Origin: an uncultured Blastochloridaceae bacterium
GTDB taxonomy: Bacteria > Verrucomicrobiota > Verrucomicrobiia > Methylacidiphilales > JBCBYL01
Assembly (NCBI GenBank): GCA_964351865.1
Contig: CAYGPJ010000014.1
Location: 35,556 to 99,555, forward strand
DNA length: 64,000 nucleotides
Direction: 5' to 3'
Part shown: piece after piece, positions 49,585 to 63,968 of the stretch
Layout of the letters: each line of letters begins with the position of its first letter
Numbering within the stretch: the stretch's first letter is position 1
Translations under genes and position numbers: made by a program
Notes under the pieces: generated by a model
The model's input: only the letters and a program-made list of their open reading frames with translations
Told to the model about the DNA's origin: nothing
Databases searched by the model: none

Positions 49585-51168
49585 ATGCGTGTTGTAAATT
49601 TGTTAGTAGGAATGATGATGGTCGGCTTCCTGTTGTCCGGTTGTCAGCAGGTCGGGAAACGTCCGACGCTGACCATCATCTCAGGTTCGGAAAATAAATT
49701 ACTGGAACCGGTCGTGGCTGAATACGGGCGAGAGCATGGAGTGGATATACAGATGGTGTACAAAGGCTCGGTGGACATCATGCTGGAACTCAAGGACGGC
49801 AGCACCGGTTTTGATGCGGTCTGGCCTGCTAACAGCCTTTGGATTGAGCTTTCAGGGAACCGGAACGTCAGGCATGAGAAAAGTATTTTTCAGAGTCCGG
49901 TAGTGCTGGGAGTCAAGCGGTCCCGGGCGGAGGCCCTGGGGTTATTGGATCGGGCCAACGTCTCGCTGGCTGATTTGGTCGAATTGTCGCGGGCGGGTAA
50001 GCTGCCGTTTATCATGAGTAATCCTACCCAATCCAATTCGGGGGCGATGGGATATCTGGGGTTTCTGCACGGCGTGACGGGTAAAGACACACCATTTACT
50101 GCGGACGATTTAAATCGTCAGGAAACCGAGGTGGCGCTGAAGGCATTGCTGGGGGCGATCGCCCGGACCAGCGGATCCAGCGGGTGGCTTAAAGATCTCT
50201 ATCTCGAAAATGTGGCAGAGTATGATGCGATGATCAATTATGAGGCGTTGATCATTGAGGCAAATCTGTTGCTGGAGGCGCGAGGAGACGAGCCGCTGAT
50301 TTGTCTGTATCTGGCCGAAGGGCAACCCATCGCGGACAGCCCGCTCGGGTTTGTGAAGCATGCGGATGACGCAGATAACGCAAATAAGGAAGCGCTGTTT
50401 CTGGAGTTTCAGTCGTTTCTGCTGAGCCCTGATGTGCAGCAGCGGCTGGCTAAGCTGGGAAGACGCACAGGAGTCTTTGGGCATGGCTCGCTGGATGCCG
50501 ACGTGTTCCGCAAAGAATGGGGTATCGATCCGGAGCGGGTGTTGCAACCGGTGCCACTGCCGGGAGGGGAAGTGATTCAACAAGCCCTGCGGTTGTATCA
50601 GACGCGATTTAAAAAACCATCACTTACCGCTTTCGTGCTCGATTATTCCGGATCAATGAAAGATGAAGGAGAAAAAGAGTTGGAAGCCGCCATGACGGTG
50701 CTGCTGGATCCGGAACAAGCCGAGCGCTTTATGCTGCTGACCGGCGAGCGGGATATGACTTACGTGATTCCTTTCGATTCGGAGCCACGCGATGTGATCT
50801 TTCTGGAGGGAAATGATCCGAAAGGTATTCGTAAACTTCAGAGCCTGGTGCTTGAGCAGCGTGCGGAGGGAGGCACGAATATCTACCTGGCGGCGGAAAC
50901 GGCGATGAAGCGTATTCTGGCAACACCGGGGCGAGAACAATATCAGGTTTCCATTATTCTGATGACAGATGGGAAGAGTTCCGGATCGTTCAATGATTTT
51001 CAGCAGGCGTGGCAGAGCAATGGTGCGAAGATACCGGTGTTTTCGATTACTTTCGGGAATGCTGATGAGGAACAGTTAAAAACCATTGCGAATACCACCA
51101 ATGCCCGGGTCTTTTCGGGGCAGTCTGATTTGAGAAAAGCCTTTCGCAAAGCAAAGGGATATAATTGA
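49585..51168 (+). CDS. Lipoprotein with N-terminal periplasmic-binding-protein-like domain and C-terminal von Willebrand factor A domain
   Basis: Lipobox 'LLSGCQQ'; vWA MIDAS 'DYSGSM…TDG' ('VLDYSGSMKD', 'IILMTDGKSS'); N-terminal domain paralogous to 51760-52839. Confidence 0.7.
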   Translation: MRVVNLLVGMMMVGFLLSGCQQVGKRPTLTIISGSENKLLEPVVAEYGREHGVDIQMVYKGSVDIMLELKDGSTGFDAVWPANSLWIELSGNRNVRHEKSIFQSPVVLGVKRSRAEALGLLDRANVSLADLVELSRAGKLPFIMSNPTQSNSGAMGYLGFLHGVTGKDTPFTADDLNRQETEVALKALLGAIARTSGSSGWLKDLYLENVAEYDAMINYEALIIEANLLLEARGDEPLICLYLAEGQPIADSPLGFVKHADDADNANKEALFLEFQSFLLSPDVQQRLAKLGRRTGVFGHGSLDADVFRKEWGIDPERVLQPVPLPGGEVIQQALRLYQTRFKKPSLTAFVLDYSGSMKDEGEKELEAAMTVLLDPEQAERFMLLTGERDMTYVIPFDSEPRDVIFLEGNDPKGIRKLQSLVLEQRAEGGTNIYLAAETAMKRILATPGREQYQVSIILMTDGKSSGSFNDFQQAWQSNGAKIPVFSITFGNADEEQLKTIANTTNARVFSGQSDLRKAFRKAKGYN

Positions 51169-51755
51169 AGCTAACGCCTGACATAAAACGTGAACTGGTC
51201 GCGTCCGGTGTGGCCTCAGTCGGTGCGATTGGATTAGCCGTGTCGGGGTTGCCGCTGTTGATCGTGGGAGCGGGTGCCGTGGGTTGCTACATCGGGGTGC
51301 GGTCGATTATTCCTGCTCCTCAGACTGACGGTGAACGCTTGGAGGAATTGCGGCGGGAGGCTGCGCGTTACGAATCGCACATTAAAGAAAAGCTTCATCA
51401 TCTGATCAATCATCAGGCCACCCTGCCGGAGGCGGGCAGGAGTTCGATTGCTAAAATTGTGGAAACTTCCCGCTATATTCTGATCGATATAAAAGATCAT
51501 CCGCACAAGTTGCAAGAGGCACAGTTTTATTTAAATCATCATCTGGAGAGCACTGCGAAAATCCTCTCCAAATATCGTGAACTCGTCGCTAAAAAATCTG
51601 ATCGTGCTGCGAAATATGAGGTTCGGATATTAGAACTGCTGGAGCGGGTTGCCGTGAGCTTTGAAAATGGCAAGCGGTCGCTGCTGGATGAGGATGTCGT
51701 GACACTGGAATCAGAAATAGAAATTTTAGATACAACATTAGAACTGGAGTCGTGA
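51165..51755 (+). CDS. Membrane-anchored helical protein, XpaC (PF10112)-like (tentative)
   Basis: Two N-terminal TM helices followed by a helical domain; 4-bp start/stop overlap with the upstream gene. Confidence 0.35.
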   Translation: MKLTPDIKRELVASGVASVGAIGLAVSGLPLLIVGAGAVGCYIGVRSIIPAPQTDGERLEELRREAARYESHIKEKLHHLINHQATLPEAGRSSIAKIVETSRYILIDIKDHPHKLQEAQFYLNHHLESTAKILSKYRELVAKKSDRAAKYEVRILELLERVAVSFENGKRSLLDEDVVTLESEIEILDTTLELES

Positions 51756-51759
51756 ATTT

Positions 51760-52839
51760 ATGAAAGCACAACAAGTTATTGGAATCTTCGTGCTCCTGCT
51801 GACTTTGTCGGTCATCGGAGCGTATTACCTGTTTACGGGTAAAGCGGGCGGGAGTGGTGAGCTGTTATTGATTAAAGGTTACTGCGGCGGGGAGAAAATG
51901 CAGATGATTCGCAACCCAGAGGTCAGTAAAATATTAAAGAAACGCTACGGGATTGAGCTGGATGTCAGCAAGCGGGGGTCGGTGGAGATGGTGACGACCG
52001 AGCCACTGGAGGGGATTGATTTTGTCTGGCCCGGTTCACAGTCGCAATTGGCCTTATGGAAGGCTTCAGGGAAAAGGTATGAAAAAGCGGAGATTCTGTT
52101 TAACAGCCCGATCGTGCTCTATTCCTGGGACATCGTCAGCAAGGGGCTGGAAGGACAAGGAGTGGTAGAGGCTAAAGCGGGTGACACAGATTATGCGAAT
52201 ATGTCGTTACTACTGGAAAAGCTGGAGGCTAAAGAGAAGTGGAAAAACCTCGGTGTGGAGGCGCTTTCCGGACCAGTGCGGGTCGTTTTCACTAACCCGA
52301 ATAAATCAAATTCAGGCAATCAGTTTATGGGCTTATTGGCTACTGTCGCAAACGGTGAAGAAGCGCTCACCGGGCAGCCGTCCGAAAAAATACGAGCCAC
52401 CATGAAAGAAATTGTAGCTGGTTTAGGATACATGCATAGCTCAAGCGGGGATCTGTTCTCGCAATACCTGAGTCAGGGCGTCGGCGCATATCCGATGGTT
52501 GCCGGGTATGAATCGCAAATTATTGAGTTTTCCAGAAAAAACCCCGAGATGCTTAAAAATATTCTGGCGAAGCTGCGGATTATCTATCCGCGACCGACCG
52601 TTTGGTCGTCGCATCCGATGATCGCATTGACCGATCATGGGGAAAAATTACTGGAAGCTTTGCAGGATCCGGAAATTCAGCAGATTGCGTGGCGGGAGCA
52701 TGGATTCCGGCCGGGCAATGCAGCGGTCGGCATTACGATTGAAAATGCACCTATTCCAGGGATTCCCACATCGATCAATTCAATTGTGCCTATGCCGGCA
52801 CTGGATGCGATGCAGGTGCTGATGGAAGATGTGGAATAA
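51760..52839 (+). CDS. Membrane-anchored PBP-like domain protein (paralog of N-domain of 49585)
   Basis: N-terminal TM helix. Aligns with the upstream protein: 'IDFVWPGSQSQLALW' ~ 'FDAVWPANSLWIEL'; 'VFTNPNKSNSGNQFMGLLA' ~ 'IMSNPTQSNSGAMGYLGFL'. Confidence 0.55.
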   Translation: MKAQQVIGIFVLLLTLSVIGAYYLFTGKAGGSGELLLIKGYCGGEKMQMIRNPEVSKILKKRYGIELDVSKRGSVEMVTTEPLEGIDFVWPGSQSQLALWKASGKRYEKAEILFNSPIVLYSWDIVSKGLEGQGVVEAKAGDTDYANMSLLLEKLEAKEKWKNLGVEALSGPVRVVFTNPNKSNSGNQFMGLLATVANGEEALTGQPSEKIRATMKEIVAGLGYMHSSSGDLFSQYLSQGVGAYPMVAGYESQIIEFSRKNPEMLKNILAKLRIIYPRPTVWSSHPMIALTDHGEKLLEALQDPEIQQIAWREHGFRPGNAAVGITIENAPIPGIPTSINSIVPMPALDAMQVLMEDVE

Positions 52840-52934: not shown

Positions 52935-53564
52935 ATGGAAGCGATGATCACAGAATTTTTAAAGCCGGTTAATCTGGGATTGTCGGTTTTATTACTGGTT
53001 TTCATCTTATATTGGCTGATAACGATCATCGGGGGGTTGGATCTGGATTATTTTGATCTCGATATGGATTTCGGGGATGACGCGGATCTTGATGCGGACT
53101 CCGGGTTTTCATTTCTGAAGTATCTTGGCATTGGTGAGGCTCCCCTGATGGTGGTGCTGACCTGCCTAGTCATGTTTACCTGGGCCATGGCGTATATTAT
53201 ATTTGCTGTGTTGAACCTCTACTCGGTGCCGCTGCAACTGCTCATTCTGATTCCGATATTCATTGCCAGTTGTTTCATAACACATTACGTGGCAAAGCCT
53301 TTCGGCTACGTGTTCAACCTGTTAAACAAGTCCTCGGATAAGCCGGTAAAAATTATCGGGCAGGAATGCACCGTGACTACGGGAGAGGTAACCGAGAGCT
53401 TCGGGCAGGCTGAGATCGAACGGGATGGATCGTCGATCGTCATTCAGGCACGTAGTAAAAACGGAGAAATTTTTAATCGCGGTGATACCGCGCTGGTAGT
53501 GGAAGAAGACCGGGAAGCAGGGGTCTGGTATATTCGAAAAGTGAATGCTTCTAATTTAAACTAA
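52935..53564 (+). CDS. YqiJ/NfeD-like inner-membrane protein (OB-fold C-terminus)
   Basis: 209 aa; TM helices separated by an acidic 'DLDYFDLDMDFGDDADLDADSG' loop; C-terminal beta-rich OB-like domain; sits upstream of flotillin as in yqiJ-yqiK. Confidence 0.6.
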   Translation: MEAMITEFLKPVNLGLSVLLLVFILYWLITIIGGLDLDYFDLDMDFGDDADLDADSGFSFLKYLGIGEAPLMVVLTCLVMFTWAMAYIIFAVLNLYSVPLQLLILIPIFIASCFITHYVAKPFGYVFNLLNKSSDKPVKIIGQECTVTTGEVTESFGQAEIERDGSSIVIQARSKNGEIFNRGDTALVVEEDREAGVWYIRKVNASNLN

Positions 53565-53580
53565 AACAAAAGGAGAGAGT

Positions 53581-55602
53581 ATGTGGTTAGCTCAGGTATA
53601 TGGGAATAGTTCAAGTGCGGATCAGTTAGGAGTCTATCTGATGCCCATTATTGTGATTGTGGTCATTCTGGTCGCCGTCGTTTTCGGTACTCTGATAATG
53701 ATTGCTAAATTCTACAAAAAGGTAGATCAGGGGCGAGCATTGGTGCGGAATGGTCTTGGTGGCACCAAGGTGTCTTTCACAGGTATCGTGGTGTATCCGA
53801 TCATTCATCAGTGCGAATACATGGATATTTCGATCAAACGGGTGGAAATTCAGCGTGCTGGTTCAGAAGGGCTGATCTGTAAGGACAATATGCGGGCGGA
53901 TATTACGGTAGCTTTCTTCGTGCGTGTTAACTCCACTAAGGATGATGTATTGAAAGTCGCTCAGTCGGTCGGATGCGCTCGCGCGTCTGATGTGCAAAAG
54001 CTGCGCGAACTCTTCGATGCGAAATTCTCAGAAGGTCTCAAAACAGTCGGACGTCAGTTCGATTTTGTCGATCTCTATAATGCGCGCGGTCAGTTTAAGG
54101 ATGAAATCCTGAAAGTGATCGGAACGGACTTGAACGGCTATGTGTTGGACGATGCCGCCATCGATCATCTGGAACAGACCAAACTCGAATTCCTGAGTGC
54201 GAATAACATTCTCGATGCCTCCGGGATCAAGAAAATTACCGAACTCACGGCTAGAGAGAAGATTCTGGCAAATCAGATCGATCGCGATCGTGAAAAGACG
54301 GTGACCAAGCAGGATGTGGAAGCCGAGGAGGCGATTCTGGAACTGAACCGACAACTGGCAGAGTCCCAACAGAAACAGATTCGCGAAATCGCTACGGTGA
54401 CCGCACGAGAAAATGCGGAAACCGCGAAAGTCACGGAAGAGCAGCGACTGAAGTCTGAGCGTGCTCGCATAGCCGCAGATGAGGAAATTCAGACCTCTGA
54501 AGAGAACAAGAATCGCGCGGTGATCGTGGCGACTCGTAACAAGGAGCGGACGGATGCCGTCGAGCAGGAACGTATCCTGAAAGACCAGCAACTGGAAATG
54601 GTTGAACGCGAACGCATTGTTGAACTGGCTCAGATTGAGAAGCAGCGTGCGGTCGAGCAGGAGCAGAAAAACATTCAGGACGTTATCAAAGAACGTGTGA
54701 TGGTCGAGCGCCTGGTGGTTGAAGAAAAAGAACGCATCAAAGATACCGAAGCATTCGCGGGAGCGGATCGTAAGAAGCAAGTTGCGGTCACGGCGGCCAA
54801 GGAACTGGCGGAACAGGAACTGATCCAGAAAACCCAGCAGGCGGAAGCCGATAAGCAGTCGGCCGAATTGAAAGCACTGCAAGTAGTGATTGATGCGGAA
54901 GCTGCCGAGAAAGCGGCCATCAAAAATTCCAACGCCAAGAAGGTGATGGCTGAGGGGATCGCTGCCGAGCACGCTGCAACCGGCATGGCGGAAGTCTCCG
55001 TAAAAGAAGCAATGGCTGGTGCCGTTCAGAAAGAAGGCGAAGCGGAAGCCAATGTCATCCGTGTCAAAGCGGTGGCGGATGCAGAAGGGATTACCAAGAA
55101 AGCGGAAGCGATGAAACTCTTCGATACGGTCGGTAAAGATCACGAAGAATTCAAGCTGCGACTGGAACTGGAGAAAGACATCAAGCTGGCAGAACTGGAC
55201 ATGCACACGAAAGTGGCGGTCGAGCGGGCTGACATTGTGGGTGAAGCGCTCAAGAGTGCAAACATCGACATCATCGGCGGCGAAAGCACCTTCTTCGACA
55301 AGATTACCGGAGCCGTGGCTCAGGGCCGTGCCATTGACGGAATGGTCAATGAGAGTTCGGTGCTGACGGATGTCAGGGAAGCCTTGTTCGATACCGATGC
55401 TGAAGTGGTCAAAGCCAAGATTAAAAGCCTGACCGGACGTTTCGGGGTGGATACGAATGACATTAAGAATCTGAGTATCGCTGCGGTGCTTTCCTCGGCG
55501 ATCGCAAACACCGGAGACAGTTCCCTCAAGGGGGTCTTCAAGGATCTATTGGAATCGACCAGGAAGCTGGGGCTCGATTCCAAGAAATTCTCAGAGATCT
55601 AA
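53581..55602 (+). CDS. Flotillin-family SPFH/Band-7 protein (YqiK-like) with long coiled-coil
   Basis: N-terminal TM; SPFH domain 'ALVRNGLGGTKVSF…DISIKRVEIQ…DNMRADITVAFFVRV'; about 350-aa E/A/K-rich coiled-coil. Confidence 0.9.
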   Translation: MWLAQVYGNSSSADQLGVYLMPIIVIVVILVAVVFGTLIMIAKFYKKVDQGRALVRNGLGGTKVSFTGIVVYPIIHQCEYMDISIKRVEIQRAGSEGLICKDNMRADITVAFFVRVNSTKDDVLKVAQSVGCARASDVQKLRELFDAKFSEGLKTVGRQFDFVDLYNARGQFKDEILKVIGTDLNGYVLDDAAIDHLEQTKLEFLSANNILDASGIKKITELTAREKILANQIDRDREKTVTKQDVEAEEAILELNRQLAESQQKQIREIATVTARENAETAKVTEEQRLKSERARIAADEEIQTSEENKNRAVIVATRNKERTDAVEQERILKDQQLEMVERERIVELAQIEKQRAVEQEQKNIQDVIKERVMVERLVVEEKERIKDTEAFAGADRKKQVAVTAAKELAEQELIQKTQQAEADKQSAELKALQVVIDAEAAEKAAIKNSNAKKVMAEGIAAEHAATGMAEVSVKEAMAGAVQKEGEAEANVIRVKAVADAEGITKKAEAMKLFDTVGKDHEEFKLRLELEKDIKLAELDMHTKVAVERADIVGEALKSANIDIIGGESTFFDKITGAVAQGRAIDGMVNESSVLTDVREALFDTDAEVVKAKIKSLTGRFGVDTNDIKNLSIAAVLSSAIANTGDSSLKGVFKDLLESTRKLGLDSKKFSEI

Positions 55603-55699: not shown

Positions 55700-58600
55700 A
55701 TGGCTGATAACGACTACAATGAGCTCAAAGAAGCACCCGCAGGCCCATCTGCCCCGGAGGCTGCCAATCCCCAAATGGAGGGAGGCGCTTATGAGATTAT
55801 TCGCAACCGCCTGCTGACGCAGGGCAAGGATCTGGCCGAACGGTTGGATAAGCTCAACAGTGCCCGCCGGGATATTTTCGGGGGGGTCGAACCCAAGCTG
55901 ATCGCTACCGACCGGATCACGACCCAGCACAATTGTGTGCCGCGTGACATGGTGGAAATCGGTGGCGACCGGTTCATCTTCGGTTACAACGTTCGACTGG
56001 GGCTCAAAACCGAGACTAATCTCTCGGATGTCTTCTCCATTTATCAGTATCAGGATGGAACCTTTCATGAAGAATCGCTGGATCAACTGATCCTCAATTC
56101 CGACTTCGAGGACGATTTCAAAAGTCTCTACAAGTATTATAAAGACACGCAGTTTGCGAAATTTCGGATCATCGGCCCGGCCTTGTACATGGTGTTTCGC
56201 ACGGGAAAAGCGGTCGATGACATCAAGACCTTCAAGTGGGCGATTACCGATGATGGTATTCAGTATGTAGGCAACCGGTTCGACCATGAATTCCATTTTC
56301 CGCCGCAGCACGAATTCGAGTGGGTGCGCACACATCGTGATCACCATCAAAGCGGCACTTATCCGCACATTTCGATTGAAGATCGGGTCTTTGTGGAAAC
56401 GTTGGATGGAGACCTGACTATCAAGGTTGAAAACAATACCGAGTCAGGAGAAGGCATTTACACCGAGCCGGTCGATAACAAAGACCAGACCCTGGATGAT
56501 GCGGAAGTCTATTACGCCTCGCTGGGGAATCTGATTCTGATTCGGGTTCGTCCTTTTCAGGAGCAAAAGTTTCGTTATTTTGTCTATAACGAAAAGTTAA
56601 AGCAGGTGCGACGGTTTGATCGCATTCATGATGCTTGTGTGCTGTTGCCCGACGAGCATGGCATCATTTTCCCGAACGGATATTATCTGCAGGGGGGAGC
56701 CTATAAGACGTTTGACCATGATGTGTCAGACATGATTTTTTCCCGGCGGATCGCTTCACCGAACGGGGAAGATTATCTCTACGTCTTCTACTCCCGGTTG
56801 GCCGGTATCTATCTGCTGCTTTCCTACAATATCATCGAGCAGCAGGTGCATACCCCGATTGTCTGTAACGGCTACAGCTTCTTTGATAACGGAGAACTGC
56901 TTTACTTTAAAGCCTCGGAGGAACCGCAGAAGGTGCACGCGATACAGATCTGGCAGACGCCATTTCGCAAGGAAGAAGACACCAGTGCGGTTGCCGAGGA
57001 TAAGGGGGCCATGCTGTTTAAGGTAGGTAATCGTGAAATCGTGCGCCTGATGGCAGACGCCAGAGAGGTCTCCAATCTCATTCAACGCGAAGATATTTAC
57101 GAAGACCTCTATCTGGAACTCTCGCGTGAAACGACGTCGATTTTAGATAGTTACTTCTGGTTGAAAGAACCGGCGGCGTTTCAGATAGACCAACCGATAG
57201 CGGCCATTAAAGAAGCAGCGACCGGTGCGATTGTAGAATTTGAAAAGGTTTCCCGTATTCGTAAAGATACGGAATCCCGCACTGCGGCGGCCCGTGAGAA
57301 AGTGAAGAAGCTTAGCTCGAGTGTGCATACCCAGAGCTATGAAAGTATTGATCCTTTTGTCGCCCACCTCTCAGCGATGCGTGGTTTGCGCGGCGAAGTG
57401 ATTTCACTCAAGGAGCTCCGCTACGCCAACGTGGCCGAGATCGAAGCATTGGAAGCCACCATCGTCGCAGAGACCGAAAAGCTTTCGCAGGGATGTGTGG
57501 AGTTTCTGTTGCAGGAAGATTCTCTGGCACCGTATCGCGAGGCGGTCGAGGATCAACAGTCTCGTATCGGCACAGGGGAAACCGCGGCCGCACTTTCTGC
57601 GCTGGAAGAGGAGATGGAGCAGTCGTCTTCAGAACTGCAGATGCTGATCGATATCGTCAGCAACCTCAAAATTGAGGACACCACGCATACCACGCAGATT
57701 ATTGACGATATCTCGGAAATCTATGCGCAACTGAATCAGGCGAAGGTGGCGCTGAAAAATCGACGTAAGAGTATTTCTTCGGTGGAGATGACGGCCCGCT
57801 TCGGAGCGGAGATGAAGTTGCTGAGTCAGTCGATTGTCAACTTTCTGGATCTCAGTGAAACCGTCGAACAGTGTGACGAGTATCTCACCAAGCTGATGGT
57901 GCAACTCGAAGAGTTGGAAGGGCGCTTCGCGGACTTTGAAAATTTTATCGCTGATCTGACTGAAAAACGGGAAGAGATTTACAACGCCTTTGAATCGAAA
58001 AAACTGGCGTTGATCGAATCGCGCAACAAGCGCTCCAATGCCCTGATGAGCACCGCGGAACGGATCCTGAGTGGAATCCGGAATCGGGTGTTGAAGATGA
58101 AATCGGTGGACGAGATCAACGGCTATCTGGCTGCCGATCTGATGGTCGAAAAAATCCGCGACATCATCCGGGAGTTAAGTGATTCCGACGACACGGTGAA
58201 AGTGGACGACCTGCAAAGCCGCTTGAAATCGATCCGTGAAGATGCAGTGCGGCAGTTGAAAGATCGGCAGGATTTGTTTGTTGAAGGTGAAAACATCATC
58301 AAATTCGGTCGACACCATTTTACAGTCAATACACAGGCGCTGGATCTGACGATTCTGAGGCGCGATGGTGGATTGCAGACGCATCTGACCGGCACGAACT
58401 ATTTCAGGAATATCGAAGATCCAAGAATTTTGGAATGTCGGGATATCTGGGATCAGGAAATTCTTTCGGAGAACGATGAGGTTTATCGGGCGGAGTATCT
58501 GGCTTACCTGTTCTGGAACGATGGAAATGCGGACATCCCGCAGGAAGTGGAAGCGTTGGAAGCAGCGCTGCAGAAGTTCATGGCACCCCGCTATGACGAA

Positions 58601-61102
58601 GGCTACATCAAGGGGGTGCACGACCATGATGCGGCGCGGATTCTGTTAGCCATTCACAGCATTCATGAGTCCATTGGTTTGCTGAGATACCGGCCTGCGG
58701 TGCGGGCGCTGGCGGGATACTTCTGGAGCACGCTGGATCAGGATGAAGCGCGGCATCAGCTCGCAAGAAAAGCTGCCAGCTTCGGGAAAATGCGGCACAC
58801 CTTTCACGCTGAGGGTAAACGACCTTCGGATGCAGGACACTATATCCGGGATTTGAGCCGGCAGTTGGCAAACTTCTGCCAATCATGCCAGTTGTTCAAT
58901 CACGACGACGTGGCTCCGGCCAGTGAATATCTGTTTGAGGCGCTGACGCAGGATCAACCGGCGTTTGCTATCAGCAGTCGGGCGCTGGATCTGGTTCAGG
59001 AATTTAAGCAGTCCCTCAAAGAGCGTGCGGCGGAGAAAGAATTTCAGCAGGCACTGGAATCGGTCGGAGATGCACCGGAAAGTAAGTCGCAACTGGCTGG
59101 CGACTGGATCGACGGGTTTTTGGGCTTTGCCGCGGATGACGATGGACAGCATCCGTTGGCTCGCTACGCGGATGAGGCGGCGTTGTTACTGGCCGGAATC
59201 CTTTCGGATCAGGCGGAGAAAAATATCACCGATCCGGAACAGAAACTGTCCGGATTGAAAGGATCGCACGAGCGGATTCACGAGGGAAGTTATGCCTTCG
59301 ACTACCATGATTTCTTTAGTCGCCTCAGTGCCTTCCGTGAAAAAACGGTGCCTGCGTTTACGACGTATCAAAAGCTGAAAAAAACCATCAACGAAGAAGA
59401 GCGGGAACGCTTACGGCTGGATGAATTCAAGCCGCGCGTGCTGACCTCCTTTGTGCGGAATAAGCTGATTGATAAAGTCTATCTGCCGCTGATCGGTGAT
59501 AATTTTGCCAAGCAGGTTGGTTCAGCGGGTGAAGGTAAGCGGACGGATCTGATGGGAATGTTGCTACTGATCTCGCCTCCCGGTTACGGGAAAACGACGC
59601 TGATGGAATACACTGCCAGCCGGTTGGGAATGATCTTCATGAAGATCAACGGGCCGGCAATCGGGCATCAGGTGACCTCGCTGGATCCGGGCGATGCGCC
59701 GAATATGAGTGCCCGCGAGGAAGTGAATAAACTGAACCTCGCGCTGGAGATGGGCGATAATGTGATGATTTATCTGGATGATATTCAGCACTGTAACCCT
59801 GAATTTCTGCAAAAGTTTATTTCACTCTGTGATGGCCAGCGAAAGATTGAAGGGGTTTTCAACGGGCGTCCGCGAACCTATGATCTGCGTGGACGTAAGG
59901 TCGCGGTGGTGATGGCAGGAAATCCGTACACGGAAAGCGGAGAAAAATTCCGTATCCCTGACATGCTGGCCAACCGTGCCGACACCTATAACCTGGGTGA
60001 TATTATCGGTGAAAATGCGGATGTGTTTAAATTGAGCTACATCGAAAACTCGATCACTTCGAATCCGGCGCTGAACCATCTGGCCAGTCGCGGCCAGAAA
60101 GACATTCACGGCTTGATCCGCATCGCCGAGACCGGCAGTCGGGAAGGGGTGGACATGGAAGCCAGTTACTCCATGGACGAAGTAAATGAAATGGTCGGAG
60201 TAGTGGAAAAGATGCTCAAGATTCGCGATGTCATCCTGGCGGTGAATCAGGCCTACATCAACTCCGCGGCGCAGGCAGACGCTTACCGCACCGAGCCGCC
60301 ATTTAAGCTGCAGGGTTCTTATCGGAATATGAATCGCCTGTCTGAAAAAGTGCGGGCGATCATGAATGACGATGAACTCACGCAAATGATCATTGATGAT
60401 TATACCAATGAAGCCCAAACGTTGACTGCAGGTGCGGAGGCGAATCTGCTGAAATTCCGTGAATTGATGGGATGGTTGACGCCTGAGGAGGCACAACGGT
60501 GGGACGATATCAAAGCGTCCTTCCAGCGCAATCAGTTGTTGCACAGCACCGACGGAGACGATCCGGTGGCACGCGTGGTCGGGCAGTTGTCCGCATTACA
60601 GGCAGGACTTCAGGCCATAGCAGCCGGATTAAAAGACGGAACCGAACATTCCGGACTGCAACAGATACAACTGACCTCGGAAACCTGGGATGAACTCAAA
60701 GCACTGGTGGCAGGGACTCATCCTTCACCGATGCCGCAAACCATATCCGCGGTTGCTCCACCTGCGGGAGAAATGGAGAGCCTCGCGTCACAAGATGACA
60801 TTGCGACTGCCGGGGATGGCGCTGCCGGAAGTTACGAACCCTATAAGGTGGATGTGGTCTACCGCTTTCCGGAAGATTTTTCAGCGCTGTTACAGGAGCA
60901 GATGAAAATTGTGCAAAGCCTGATTGAACCCACCACGAAAGTGGCACGGGACGAGCGTAAGGAATTGCGCAAAACGTTGAAGGACATTCAGGTGGTGCTC
61001 GGTGAGTATCATCACTACCTTGACGAGTTGCAGGGCAAAGCGGTGATCCGTGAAGAAGATGCAGTAGCTACGAGAGCGGAAAAGAAAACAAAGAAAGCGT
61101 AG
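55700..61102 (+). CDS. Giant (1,800-aa) multidomain protein with MoxR/AAA_5-type ATPase core
   Basis: Walker A 'LLISPPGYGKTTL' (about nt 59565-59600); Walker B 'VMIYLDDIQH'; 'VAVVMAGNP…ANRADTYNL' sensor region typical of AAA_5. About 450-aa N-terminal domain without recognisable motifs; central about 400-aa helical/coiled-coil segment. Confidence 0.7.
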   Translation: MADNDYNELKEAPAGPSAPEAANPQMEGGAYEIIRNRLLTQGKDLAERLDKLNSARRDIFGGVEPKLIATDRITTQHNCVPRDMVEIGGDRFIFGYNVRLGLKTETNLSDVFSIYQYQDGTFHEESLDQLILNSDFEDDFKSLYKYYKDTQFAKFRIIGPALYMVFRTGKAVDDIKTFKWAITDDGIQYVGNRFDHEFHFPPQHEFEWVRTHRDHHQSGTYPHISIEDRVFVETLDGDLTIKVENNTESGEGIYTEPVDNKDQTLDDAEVYYASLGNLILIRVRPFQEQKFRYFVYNEKLKQVRRFDRIHDACVLLPDEHGIIFPNGYYLQGGAYKTFDHDVSDMIFSRRIASPNGEDYLYVFYSRLAGIYLLLSYNIIEQQVHTPIVCNGYSFFDNGELLYFKASEEPQKVHAIQIWQTPFRKEEDTSAVAEDKGAMLFKVGNREIVRLMADAREVSNLIQREDIYEDLYLELSRETTSILDSYFWLKEPAAFQIDQPIAAIKEAATGAIVEFEKVSRIRKDTESRTAAAREKVKKLSSSVHTQSYESIDPFVAHLSAMRGLRGEVISLKELRYANVAEIEALEATIVAETEKLSQGCVEFLLQEDSLAPYREAVEDQQSRIGTGETAAALSALEEEMEQSSSELQMLIDIVSNLKIEDTTHTTQIIDDISEIYAQLNQAKVALKNRRKSISSVEMTARFGAEMKLLSQSIVNFLDLSETVEQCDEYLTKLMVQLEELEGRFADFENFIADLTEKREEIYNAFESKKLALIESRNKRSNALMSTAERILSGIRNRVLKMKSVDEINGYLAADLMVEKIRDIIRELSDSDDTVKVDDLQSRLKSIREDAVRQLKDRQDLFVEGENIIKFGRHHFTVNTQALDLTILRRDGGLQTHLTGTNYFRNIEDPRILECRDIWDQEILSENDEVYRAEYLAYLFWNDGNADIPQEVEALEAALQKFMAPRYDEGYIKGVHDHDAARILLAIHSIHESIGLLRYRPAVRALAGYFWSTLDQDEARHQLARKAASFGKMRHTFHAEGKRPSDAGHYIRDLSRQLANFCQSCQLFNHDDVAPASEYLFEALTQDQPAFAISSRALDLVQEFKQSLKERAAEKEFQQALESVGDAPESKSQLAGDWIDGFLGFAADDDGQHPLARYADEAALLLAGILSDQAEKNITDPEQKLSGLKGSHERIHEGSYAFDYHDFFSRLSAFREKTVPAFTTYQKLKKTINEEERERLRLDEFKPRVLTSFVRNKLIDKVYLPLIGDNFAKQVGSAGEGKRTDLMGMLLLISPPGYGKTTLMEYTASRLGMIFMKINGPAIGHQVTSLDPGDAPNMSAREEVNKLNLALEMGDNVMIYLDDIQHCNPEFLQKFISLCDGQRKIEGVFNGRPRTYDLRGRKVAVVMAGNPYTESGEKFRIPDMLANRADTYNLGDIIGENADVFKLSYIENSITSNPALNHLASRGQKDIHGLIRIAETGSREGVDMEASYSMDEVNEMVGVVEKMLKIRDVILAVNQAYINSAAQADAYRTEPPFKLQGSYRNMNRLSEKVRAIMNDDELTQMIIDDYTNEAQTLTAGAEANLLKFRELMGWLTPEEAQRWDDIKASFQRNQLLHSTDGDDPVARVVGQLSALQAGLQAIAAGLKDGTEHSGLQQIQLTSETWDELKALVAGTHPSPMPQTISAVAPPAGEMESLASQDDIATAGDGAAGSYEPYKVDVVYRFPEDFSALLQEQMKIVQSLIEPTTKVARDERKELRKTLKDIQVVLGEYHHYLDELQGKAVIREEDAVATRAEKKTKKA

Positions 61103-61170: not shown

Positions 61171-61923
61171 ATGTTAAAGCGACTATCAAATCTCATCAAA
61201 GGCTTTATGGGCCTGTTCATCAGCGGTATGGAAAAAAGCAATCCGGAGGCATTGCTGGAAGTGGAAAAAGAGAATCTGCGTCAGCAGATATCCAAATACA
61301 ACCAGGGACTGGCGGCTCATGCCGGCATGTGTGAACGCCTGATGAGTCAGGTCAAAAAGCTGGAAGAAGAAGAAAGCCAGTTGACTGGAAAAGCCAAAGC
61401 CCACCTGCGGGCCGGCAATCAGGATGCCGCTGGCCAATACGCGCTGCGCTTACAGACGATTAAACGCGAGCTGATGGAAAACCGCAGCCAGCTGGAATCC
61501 GCTGAACACACTTATCAGGAACTGGTGAAGGCGCGGGACGTGTCGATTCGTTCCGCAAAAGATAAAATTGCATCGCTCAAGAGCAGCATCAGTGAAATGA
61601 GAATGAAAACCGCAGAAGCCGAGCTGACGGAAATGGCTGCGGGGATGATTACCGACATCGGTGGTTCCGGCGATACCTTGAATCGCCTGCAGGAAATGGT
61701 GGAAGAAGAGAAACAACTGGCTGCCGGTAAAGCGCGGGTGGCTAAAGATTCACTGAATACAGATGAAATTGAAATTCAGGAAATTGAACAAAAAGCGCTG
61801 GCGGATCAGGCTTTAGCGGATTTTGCCGCCAGCGAAGGATTAACCCTGGATACCGGATCAGAACCAGCTCCGGCCGAAGACGCCACGGGTGAATCCAAAT
61901 CCATGGGGCCTCAAACCCAGTAA
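61171..61923 (+). CDS. pspA: PspA/IM30/Vipp1-family protein (ESCRT-III superfamily)
   Basis: 250 aa; long amphipathic helices; N-terminal 'MLKRLSNLIKGFMGLFISGMEKSNPEALLE' matches the PspA pattern. Confidence 0.85.
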   Translation: MLKRLSNLIKGFMGLFISGMEKSNPEALLEVEKENLRQQISKYNQGLAAHAGMCERLMSQVKKLEEEESQLTGKAKAHLRAGNQDAAGQYALRLQTIKRELMENRSQLESAEHTYQELVKARDVSIRSAKDKIASLKSSISEMRMKTAEAELTEMAAGMITDIGGSGDTLNRLQEMVEEEKQLAAGKARVAKDSLNTDEIEIQEIEQKALADQALADFAASEGLTLDTGSEPAPAEDATGESKSMGPQTQ

Positions 61924-61975
61924 CAGCATTCAGTGATCGCAGGCCAAAACCGATCACACCTTCAGGGGAATCCTT

Positions 61976-63655
61976 ATGAAGAAGGTTGACTCCTCAGTTC
62001 CCGCTTGGACGCAAGAAATTGCGACCTTGTATGAGAGCGGGGCATACAATCAGTTTATCCTGCACGGTAACCTGAATGATTCTTTCCTGGTCTCCGATCC
62101 GGGCGGGCAGAAACTTGGCGACATCTATTCGCTGATCAATCGCCAATTACTCAGCGGATTCGATGTCGTTCTGACTTACGATTTGGGGCGTGGCATATTA
62201 GCTGAGAAAGGTCGCGAAGCTTTTTCTCAATGGCCTTCACACGACGCAGAAAATTTGCAGACACGTAAACCCAGGGACGCCGTGGTCACCCTGACCCATT
62301 ACTTCCGGTATGTCGCCAATCTGAGAAATATCAGCGGATCATCCAAAGCGCCCAAAGTTGCCGCATTGATCAAAGGAGCCGAGTGGATGGCTCCCGCGGT
62401 CCAGAGCGGACTCAATTACGAACTCAATGCGACCGCATTGATGATGAAGGAATGGAGTCAGGACCCGTTACTGCTTTCGCATCATCTCGCCACGTTTCTG
62501 TTTTCGGAAAACATGAATGATTTGCACCCCTTACTGGCTAATAATCCGCGGGCGGCACGGGTTAAGGTTGATCTGCCGGATGCCGCACAGTGGAAGCGCT
62601 TTTTCTCTTTCGCGGCCGCATCATTTAAGGAAACCCTGCCCGAGACGGACGGAACAAGTTGGCAAGGCAGCGATCAATTTCTAGGGGCCAGCTGTCATGC
62701 GGTCTGGCAGTTATTGCAGCGACGGGCTTATGAAAAAGAACCGCTGAAAATTAGTGATGCCGTCAGCCTGAAAAAATCACTGGTAGAAAAAGAGTGCCAG
62801 GGGTTGATTGAATTTACCGAGTCGGATCGGACACTCGATGATATTGCGGGCCAGGAGGCGATTAAAAATCTGCTGCGACAGGATATCGCCTTGTTGCATC
62901 AGGGGGACACCAAGGCATTGCCGATGGGGTATTTGCTGTGCGGTCCGGTGGGAACCGGAAAAACGTATTTCGTGGAATGTCTGGCTGGTGAGGCCGGCAT
63001 TCCGGTGGTGACTATTAAAAATTTCCGCGATAAGTGGGTGGGGTCGAGTGAAGGGAATCTCGAGAAAATTTTCCGCCTGCTGCATGCGCTGGAACGCTGT
63101 TTTGTCTTCATCGATGAGGCCGACCAATCCCTTGGGAAACGCGACAGTGGTAGCAGCGATTCCGGATTGTCCGGTCGAATCTATTCCATGTTCGCCAAAG
63201 AGATGAGTCAGGTGCGAAATCGCGGTAAAATCATTTGGCTGTTGGCTTCGAGCCGGCCGGACCTGATTGAGGTGGATCTGAAGCGCCCGGGTCGGGTAGA
63301 TGTGAAAATACCGTTATTGCCCGCGCATACCCCCGCGGGAGTGGCTGGATTATTATATGCGCTTTGCCGTAAACAGGGGATCGAGCTGTCCGAAGCACAG
63401 ATCCTGGAGCATCAGGAAATCTTGCCGGAGTGGCTGACGCCAGGCAGTGCAGAAGCTTTAGCCGTCAAACTCTATCGGAACATTAAAGCCGACGGGTTAA
63501 ATCCGTTGGAAGCCTTATCCTCTGCTTTAAATGGTTACCAGAACCCGGTGCCGCGCGATGTGATGGAGTTTCAGATCGATCTCGCCGTCAGGGAATCGTC
63601 GGACATGAGTTTCGTGCCCGAGGCCTTTCAAAAGCCGCAAAGTCAGAGCGTTTAA
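61976..63655 (+). CDS. Classic-clade AAA+ ATPase (FtsH/Vps4/CDC48-type single AAA cassette) with novel about 300-aa N-terminal domain
   Basis: Walker A 'CGPVGTGKT', Walker B 'VFIDEAD', SRH 'SSRPDLIEVDLKRPGRVD'. Confidence 0.85.
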   Translation: MKKVDSSVPAWTQEIATLYESGAYNQFILHGNLNDSFLVSDPGGQKLGDIYSLINRQLLSGFDVVLTYDLGRGILAEKGREAFSQWPSHDAENLQTRKPRDAVVTLTHYFRYVANLRNISGSSKAPKVAALIKGAEWMAPAVQSGLNYELNATALMMKEWSQDPLLLSHHLATFLFSENMNDLHPLLANNPRAARVKVDLPDAAQWKRFFSFAAASFKETLPETDGTSWQGSDQFLGASCHAVWQLLQRRAYEKEPLKISDAVSLKKSLVEKECQGLIEFTESDRTLDDIAGQEAIKNLLRQDIALLHQGDTKALPMGYLLCGPVGTGKTYFVECLAGEAGIPVVTIKNFRDKWVGSSEGNLEKIFRLLHALERCFVFIDEADQSLGKRDSGSSDSGLSGRIYSMFAKEMSQVRNRGKIIWLLASSRPDLIEVDLKRPGRVDVKIPLLPAHTPAGVAGLLYALCRKQGIELSEAQILEHQEILPEWLTPGSAEALAVKLYRNIKADGLNPLEALSSALNGYQNPVPRDVMEFQIDLAVRESSDMSFVPEAFQKPQSQSV

Positions 63656-63666
63656 TCGGGGACTCT

Positions 63667-63968
63667 AGGGCAAGATAGCATCTTGCCGGAATGATCATTG
63701 GCGAGATGCAAGCTTTAGGCTACGCCTAAACTAAACGAGTTAGAAATCATTGGTATTCTCCGCGCTATCGCGCTGGGTTTTCTCGCCCTACATGACCATC
63801 TCCTGTTGGCGAAACATGTTGAGCGAATCGTATGATAGCTGACGCATCCAATAGATGAAGCGCCGCAACTCCGAAAGGATTCGCGAGAGATCTCCGATAA
63901 AATCGCGAGTCTGCGAAATGCTGCATCGACTTACCAAAGCGCTGAACGCTAGGGGACGGAGTAATTTT
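63667..63968. repeat. Family C (63667-63794) and inverted family D (63850-63968) repeat elements
   Basis: 'ggcaagatagcatcttgcc…gcgagatgcaagctttaggctacgcctaaactaaacgagttagaaa…cgcgctatcgcgctgggttttctcgccctacat'; 'tccgataaaatcgcgagtctgcg…cgctgaacgctaggggacggagtaa' is the reverse complement of 21360-21440. Confidence 0.8.

Follow-up and report, generated by a model that had tools for sequence, protein, structure and literature searches.

A stretch of 64,000 nucleotides from an uncultured Blastochloridaceae bacterium of the Verrucomicrobiota (assembly GCA_964351865.1, contig CAYGPJ010000014.1, positions 35,556 to 99,555), hereafter called the window, was analysed for a pair of genes close to its downstream end. 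These are pspA, whose product is by its sequence a divergent member of the PspA/IM30 family, and a gene for a tandem AAA ATPase of the classical clade. An earlier reading of the letters alone (the original prediction) had described the pair as a PspA gene followed by a classic-clade AAA gene and had proposed the ATPase as a Vps4-like disassembly partner of PspA. Both open reading frames (ORFs) were found on the + strand, and the genes are closely spaced as predicted, the spacer measuring 52 bp and not the 53 bp given at the time. The features of the pair are as follows (aa, amino acids; SRH, second region of homology):

61171..61923, + strand: pspA, 250 aa; codes for a divergent PspA/IM30 protein (ESCRT-III superfamily); PF04012 match
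61171..61230, + strand: N-terminal amphipathic segment MLKRLSNLIKGFMGLFISGM, conserved in the clade; putative membrane-binding helix alpha0
61897..61911, + strand: C-terminal motif KSMGP (PspA aa 243-247), following a variable linker; identified by clade conservation
61924..61975, + strand: spacer separating pspA from the AAA gene; 52 bp, read from the sequence
61976..63655, + strand: gene for the tandem classical AAA ATPase; 559 aa
61976..62791, + strand: D1, degenerate AAA+ domain without a nucleotide site, aa 1-272
62930..63310, + strand: D2, classical AAA cassette (PF00004), predicted to be active, aa 319-445
62942-62965, + strand: Walker A, GPVGTGKT, aa 323-330
63032-63049, + strand: pore loop 1, KWVGSS, aa 353-358
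63107-63124, + strand: Walker B, FIDEAD, aa 378-383
63248-63301, + strand: SRH, SSRPDLIEVDLKRPGRVD, aa 425-442, with R437/R440
63311..63655, + strand: helical lid of D2 and conserved C-terminal extension, aa 446-559, plus stop codon

ORFs on the minus strand within the region of the pair do not exceed 116 aa, and all of them overlap the conserved + strand genes. A terminator scan found no + strand terminator-like site between pspA and the AAA gene which, together with the 52-bp spacer, is consistent with co-transcription of the two genes, the overall yield of the promoter and terminator scans of the window being not above shuffled expectation. The sequence at 63669-63687, GGCAAGAT agc ATCTTGCC, 14 nt past the stop codon of the ATPase gene, makes up a perfect stem of 8 bp with a loop of 3 nt. 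It was not called by the terminator scan, because no T-run follows the stem.

The PspA-family protein

Residues 2-220 of the window PspA align to positions 3-216 of the 220 positions of the PF04012 PspA_IM30 model (E = 1e-7), with a score of 32.2 bits that is slightly under the gathering score of 33.9, though the match runs end to end. PF04012 was matched by all 31 aligned members of the clade to which the protein belongs (best E = 2.7e-13), while other coiled-coil families matched only 1-4 of the 31, with E values of about 1e-3. A precomputed PF04012 match was likewise present on each of the 120 best listed homologues, and the sources, where they name these proteins, call nearly all of them PspA/IM30 or phage shock protein A. 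Since the matches extend over the whole clade and over all listed homologues, the PF04012 match is not a stray coiled-coil match, and the window protein is, on its profile matches, a member of the PspA/IM30 family and thus of the ESCRT-III superfamily, as part of a divergent clade. This clade is remote from the proteins that have been studied, because a profile search against solved structures gave no match of the clade profile to solved PspA or Vipp1 structures, and comparison of E. coli PspA with the clade by hhalign was negative.

Two short segments of the protein are conserved within the clade. The N-terminal pattern MF[KR]R[LI].NL.[KR]GF..LF[IV]SG is kept in all clade members; in the window protein it is represented by MLKRLSNLIKGFMGLFISGM, putatively helix alpha0 from its position in the PF04012 alignment and from general knowledge of PspA and Vipp1. 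At the other end, after a variable linker of low complexity, 82 of 142 clade members carry the exact core K-[ST]-M-G-P (KSMGP in 44, KTMGP in 38), and most others have close variants of it. Variants with L in place of M occur in other clade members, including three loci without the ATPase gene within 6 kb downstream. The position of the tail resembles that of a short linear docking motif, and K[ST]MGP is a candidate docking or entry tag.

Domains of the tandem ATPase

The ATPase matches PF00004 (AAA) with an E value of 3.5e-24 and 86.2 bits, the cut-off being 21.2. All three motifs quoted in the original prediction (Walker A, Walker B, SRH) were present, and a KWVG pore loop was found besides, so that the assignment to the classic AAA clade was borne out. 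Residues G323-T330, W354 V355 G356, D380 E381, R437 and R440 were invariant across an alignment of 30 ATPase homologues, which are just 53-58% identical overall. With its two Walker motifs, its pair of arginine fingers and its aromatic pore loop intact, D2 is predicted to be catalytically competent. Residues Y521 Q522 P524 ... F546 in the C-terminal part of D2 were also conserved in this alignment. In an AlphaFold2 model of the whole ATPase, built from the 30-sequence alignment with a mean predicted local distance difference test (pLDDT) value of 80.3, the lid of D2 was all-helical and had no beta insertion; neither Vps4_C (PF09336) nor AAA_lid gave a Pfam match in the ATPase. Segments of low pLDDT (351-357, 383-398 and 428-446) coincide with the pore loops and the SRH, as may be expected of parts that become ordered only in a hexamer.

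The region ahead of D2 had been described as an uncharacterised domain of about 300 aa, possibly a helical bundle resembling MIT. A distinct N-terminal domain does exist, comprising about 270 folded residues and a linker and not 300, and its fold is a different one. Both the whole-chain model and a separate model of residues 1-272 (pLDDT 89.8; predicted template modelling score, pTM, 0.87) gave D1 an alpha/beta AAA+ fold instead of a helical bundle, and no MIT match was obtained with Pfam. PEX6 was among the best fold matches of the D1 model, and FtsHi, AFG2, RFC, VAT and others were also matched; with the whole-ATPase model, up to 366 residues could be aligned to the two-domain PEX1. No Walker A motif is present in D1, where G-N-x-N-D (aa 31-35) follows the first core strand in the place of the P-loop, and no Walker B motif, the strand reading VAALIKGAEW without an acidic pair. 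Sequence homology between D1 and D2 was not significant by hhalign (Prob 0.3%); the low-confidence alignment nonetheless pairs the Walker B and SRH regions of the two domains. Because D1 has an AAA+ fold without a nucleotide site, the protein is read as a tandem AAA ATPase in which D1 is dead and D2 live.

A near-invariant and family-specific segment of D1, SYDLGNGIRVEKGG..F.QWP (aa 67-87; 62174-62236), forms an extra beta-hairpin in the model. This hairpin could be an interaction surface and could contact PspA. A search with D1 of 1.84 billion cluster representatives gave 1071 clusters at E <= 1e-3, 463 of them at E <= 1e-10, and full-length members carrying the domain were mostly 530-610 aa long. 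On these hits D1 is specific to this ATPase family.

The ATPase scored far under the cut-offs of all family models with which it was compared: 39.2 bits with the NCBIfam CdvC model NF041006 (cut-off 650), 69 bits with the CDC48 model TIGR01243 (cut-off 802.65), 64.7 bits with the FtsH model TIGR01241 (cut-off 600) and 45 bits with the PAN model. The CdvC score (39 bits) was thus lower than the partial scores obtained with CDC48 (69), FtsH (65) and PAN (45). When the D2 profile was compared with solved structures, the best of the matches listed were VAT, Cdc48/p97, AFG2, NVL and Rix7, a ranking that is not a phylogeny and is unreliable for placing D2 among Vps4, FtsH and Cdc48, because targets with two domains sum two scores. 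On its motifs and model scores, the ATPase is a family of its own inside the classical AAA clade.

Resemblance to Vps4 and CdvC is seen in the classical AAA cassette with its KW-x-G pore loop and in the position of the gene beside one belonging to the ESCRT-III superfamily; the substrate may likewise be recognised via a conserved C-terminal tail. These classical motifs and the neighbouring gene also speak for the strict form of the original proposal, in which an MIT-like helical N-terminal domain would bind a MIM-like helix of PspA. The fold of D1 contradicts it, an AAA+ domain standing where the helical bundle should be. In contrast to Vps4 and CdvC, the window ATPase lacks the MIT domain, the beta-domain of the lid and Vps4_C, and has two AAA folds per chain instead of one; its CdvC score also lies far below the cut-off. 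The ATPase is consequently not a Vps4/CdvC orthologue, having neither MIT nor Vps4_C and being a tandem and not a single cassette, and membership of the Vps4 type is very improbable.

There is also an architectural likeness to type II AAA proteins (D1 of PEX6, D2 of NSF, Cdc48/VAT), which share the tandem AAA layout and, in part, the presence of one inactive ring. PEX6 has the same arrangement of a dead D1 and a live D2, while NSF is its mirror image. Unlike Cdc48, the window ATPase has no N domain of the double-psi barrel kind preceding D1 and is only 559 aa long, and its D1 lacks any P-loop, whereas Cdc48/p97 and VAT have two nucleotide-binding AAA rings. It differs from FtsH in having neither a transmembrane (TM)-like segment nor a Pfam match to Peptidase_M41.

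Conservation of the gene pair and its proposed action

Association of the two genes was surveyed from both sides. The survey from the ATPase side used one genome per GTDB species and gave at least 554 loci, of which the best 80 were examined and 73 had enough upstream sequence to be informative; the survey from the PspA side used metagenome contigs found with the PspA clade and gave 59 informative loci. A pspA gene was present upstream of the ATPase gene, on the same strand, in 65 of the 73 GTDB species loci. In 28 of these 65 the genes were directly adjacent, as in the window, in 36 they were separated by 300-2000 bp and in one by about 3 kb; the upstream genes of the PspA clade were 51-70% identical. 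Conversely, the ATPase gene was found downstream of pspA, on the same strand, in 56 of the 59 metagenome loci. A survey of this kind had been called for in the original prediction, and it upheld the association. Hosts belonged to the Verrucomicrobiota, Abditibacteriota/Armatimonadota, Acidobacteriota, Planctomycetota and Desulfobacterota and included one metagenome-assembled genome (MAG) of the Oscillospiraceae (Firmicutes); named genera of Verrucomicrobiota and Abditibacteriota and one complete Abditibacteriota genome were among them. The pairing is far beyond chance, and the two genes form a module in hundreds of bacterial species of at least six phyla. Because linkage to the PspA clade is conserved over at least six phyla, a functional partnership of the ATPase with PspA is very likely. 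In the complete genome of Abditibacteriota bacterium IAD-21, the ATPase gene has no pspA nearby; its neighbours there are a DUF4259 gene and, on the opposite strand, a PhyH dioxygenase gene.

The same surveys bear on a reading of the pair as an anti-phage defence module of the IetA type or as a product of chance adjacency. PADLOC models of IetA did match the AAA cassette (best E = 5e-9). The matches were partial and confined to the generic AAA region, and the NCBIfam IteA model gave 19 bits against a cut-off of 510. D1 had no matches in the plasmid and phage collections searched with it; the module is chromosomal and syntenic across phyla, and its neighbours are transport and membrane genes. 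No protease partner was seen upstream, and downstream of the ATPase gene the window covers just the 345 nt up to its end. Defence or chance is accordingly given hardly any credence.

A pairing of this kind is known from comparative genomics. Ravi et al. 2024 (mSystems, PMC11237479; section 18, Text S2.2, Table S3) described PspA beside an 'Inactive-Classical-AAA+Classical-AAA' protein, for example in Clostridium sp. BNL1100 (AEY64320/AEY64321) and in an operon of Handelsmanbacteria (OGG56892), and proposed an ATP-dependent membrane remodelling like that of Snf7 and Vps4 for the dyad. The window pair fits this dyad, matched by the description in the paper rather than by the example sequences: a pspA gene adjoins a gene for a protein whose N-terminal AAA domain is dead and whose classical AAA domain is active, and a membrane-anchored coiled-coil protein and solute-binding proteins (SBPs) occur as optional extra genes. 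It differs in gene order, pspA preceding the AAA gene in the window while the AAA gene comes first in the Clostridium example, in the absence from the window of a TM coiled-coil gene, and in the fusion of SBP_bac_11 to VWA where the published case has PBPB+OmpA. The window pair is a further case of the dyad and is real and biologically coherent. The idea of a Vps4-like partner survives as an analogy, while its novelty had been overstated, the proposal of Ravi et al. being already in print. What is added here are the linkage numbers, the test of the N-terminal domain at the level of the fold, and the candidate C-terminal tag of PspA. Reviews state that bacteria lack a Vps4-like partner for PspA and Vipp1 and treat the disassembly of bacterial ESCRT-III polymers as open (PMC7619361, PMC10936438), and according to a review of 2025 a Vps4-like ATPase appears to be absent in bacteria. 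A literature search found no experimental papers on this ATPase.

The preferred reading, to which we assign a probability of roughly 55%, is that the ATPase threads and disassembles PspA polymers, as a functional analogue of Vps4 with a two-ring layout like that of Cdc48 and the PEX proteins and not as its orthologue. The ATPase would form a hexamer that engages a PspA subunit as its substrate. The subunit would be threaded through the pore of D2, and its extraction would lead to the disassembly, recycling or remodelling of membrane-bound PspA polymers. D1 would serve as a scaffold and possibly as a docking ring, the candidate contacts being the K-[ST]-M-G-P tail of PspA and the D1 hairpin of aa 67-87. 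Ravi et al. 2024 had independently arrived at the same hypothesis of ATP-dependent remodelling.

Several observations weigh against disassembly of PspA by the ATPase. Eight of the 73 informative ATPase loci, that of Abditibacteriota bacterium IAD-21 (L081) among them, lacked pspA both in the 10 kb upstream and in the downstream flank that was examined. The PspA-family assignment of the window protein was made by the Pfam profile alone. In about three quarters of the other loci a gene for a TM coiled-coil protein separates pspA from the ATPase gene, and its product could be the substrate or an adaptor. The encoded protein is about 260 aa long, combines a pair of hydrophobic segments at its N-terminus with a long coiled coil and has no Pfam family; its gene was found between pspA and the ATPase gene in 23 of the 36 gapped loci of the ATPase-side survey and, on the PspA side, in about 42 of 56, about 65 loci in all (e.g. 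L005, 9218-9988, and L029, 9123-9941). The direction of action could also be reversed, because E. coli PspA regulates an AAA+ protein, PspF, which is a sigma-54 enhancer-binding protein with a helix-turn-helix (HTH) domain.

From these points another reading can be formed, in which the ATPase acts on a different client, such as the TM coiled-coil protein, SBP-VWA lipoproteins or damaged membrane proteins, and PspA is a membrane adaptor, regulator or inhibitor. Besides the frequent intervening gene, the recurrence of SBP and SBP-VWA genes is in its favour, about half of the other loci having homologues of both SBP genes of the window directly upstream of pspA, and the restraint of PspF by PspA is an established precedent. 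The two systems are alike in that PspA is paired with an AAA+ protein. They differ in that the window ATPase is of the classical-clade unfoldase type and has no Pfam match to Sigma54_activat or HTH_8, the domains of PspF, which counts against a regulatory arrangement of that kind. The TM coiled-coil gene is, moreover, missing from the window, where tblastn found no copy over the 64 kb, and from about 40 other loci, all of which keep the dyad, and the most constant neighbour of the ATPase is PspA. A different client is the main rival of the preferred reading, though a rather unlikely one.

The TM coiled-coil protein was also considered as a hidden relative of PspA or Snf7 and rejected, as hhalign against the PspA clade was negative and no Snf7 match was obtained with Pfam. 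Its identity with the 'TM+Snf7' protein of Ravi et al. could not be confirmed.

If the ATPase does strip PspA subunits from polymers, ATP-powered remodelling of ESCRT-III is not an archaeal invention, and the architecture with a dead D1 has a bearing on the proposal that Vps4 descends from an ancestor like Cdc48. The pair may be a genuine bacterial ESCRT-III/AAA machine with a dedicated unfoldase, which would either have arisen independently of archaeal Vps4 or retain a two-domain state like that of Cdc48, similar to the precursor proposed for Vps4; the odds of this wider interpretation are put slightly below even. The conserved two-gene module offers a direct experimental route to the question of how bacterial ESCRT-III polymers come apart.

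Neighbouring genes of the window

Six further genes precede pspA on the same strand:

49585-51168, + strand: SBP_bac_11+VWA gene with a lipoprotein-like N-terminus (Pfam)
51165-51755, + strand: gene for an XpaC/Halogen_Hydrol-like TM protein (Pfam)
51760-52839, + strand: SBP-like gene (Pfam)
52935-53564, + strand: YqiJ/NfeD-like multi-TM protein, 209 aa (YqiJ_N, E = 0.004, weak)
53581-55602, + strand: TM and long coiled-coil protein, 673 aa, weakly flotillin-like (FloT, 16.9 bits)
55700-61102, + strand: DUF3686/DUF7902/AAA protein, 1800 aa, ending 68 bp upstream of pspA (Pfam)

In the 1800-aa protein, DUF3686 (E = 1e-185; labelled 'ATPase involved in DNA repair') and DUF7902 are accompanied by an AAA/AAA_5 domain in the middle and a coiled coil at the C-terminus. 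No solved relative of it was found, and a literature search on DUF3686 gave no paper; nothing in this setting of membrane genes supports the 'DNA repair' label.

The last three genes, those for the YqiJ/NfeD-like, the coiled-coil and the DUF3686 protein, raise the question of a larger membrane-organising machine in this lineage, made up of the dyad and of NfeD/YqiJ-like, flotillin-like and DUF3686 AAA proteins. They lie on one strand with the dyad and are separated by short gaps, the trio also occurs near pspA and the AAA gene in a close relative of the window (L163, 85-88% identical) and in a Planctomycetota MAG (L037), and the literature reports links of PspA with SPFH/Band-7 proteins. These three loci are the only ones in which the trio was seen near the dyad, which amounts to just about two independent lineages among some 130 informative loci. 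In L037 the trio has a different order and is split from the dyad by unrelated genes, including one for an alpha/beta hydrolase, and the flotillin assignment of the 673-aa protein is weak. Because it is near the dyad in so few surveyed loci, the trio is regarded as a lineage-specific neighbour and not as a core partner, and the larger machine is improbable.

Two candidate identities were discarded. The 673-aa protein was not accepted as a flotillin, having no Pfam or PDB match and just the FloT match of 16.9 bits. The XpaC/Halogen_Hydrol-like TM protein of the window had no match in any other surveyed locus, and its comparison with the TM coiled-coil protein as a possible displaced copy of that gene was negative. 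The gene pair at 52935-55602 has the appearance of an NfeD/YqiJ-flotillin module, and in the Planctomycetota locus L037 the pair likewise stands ahead of the DUF3686 gene.

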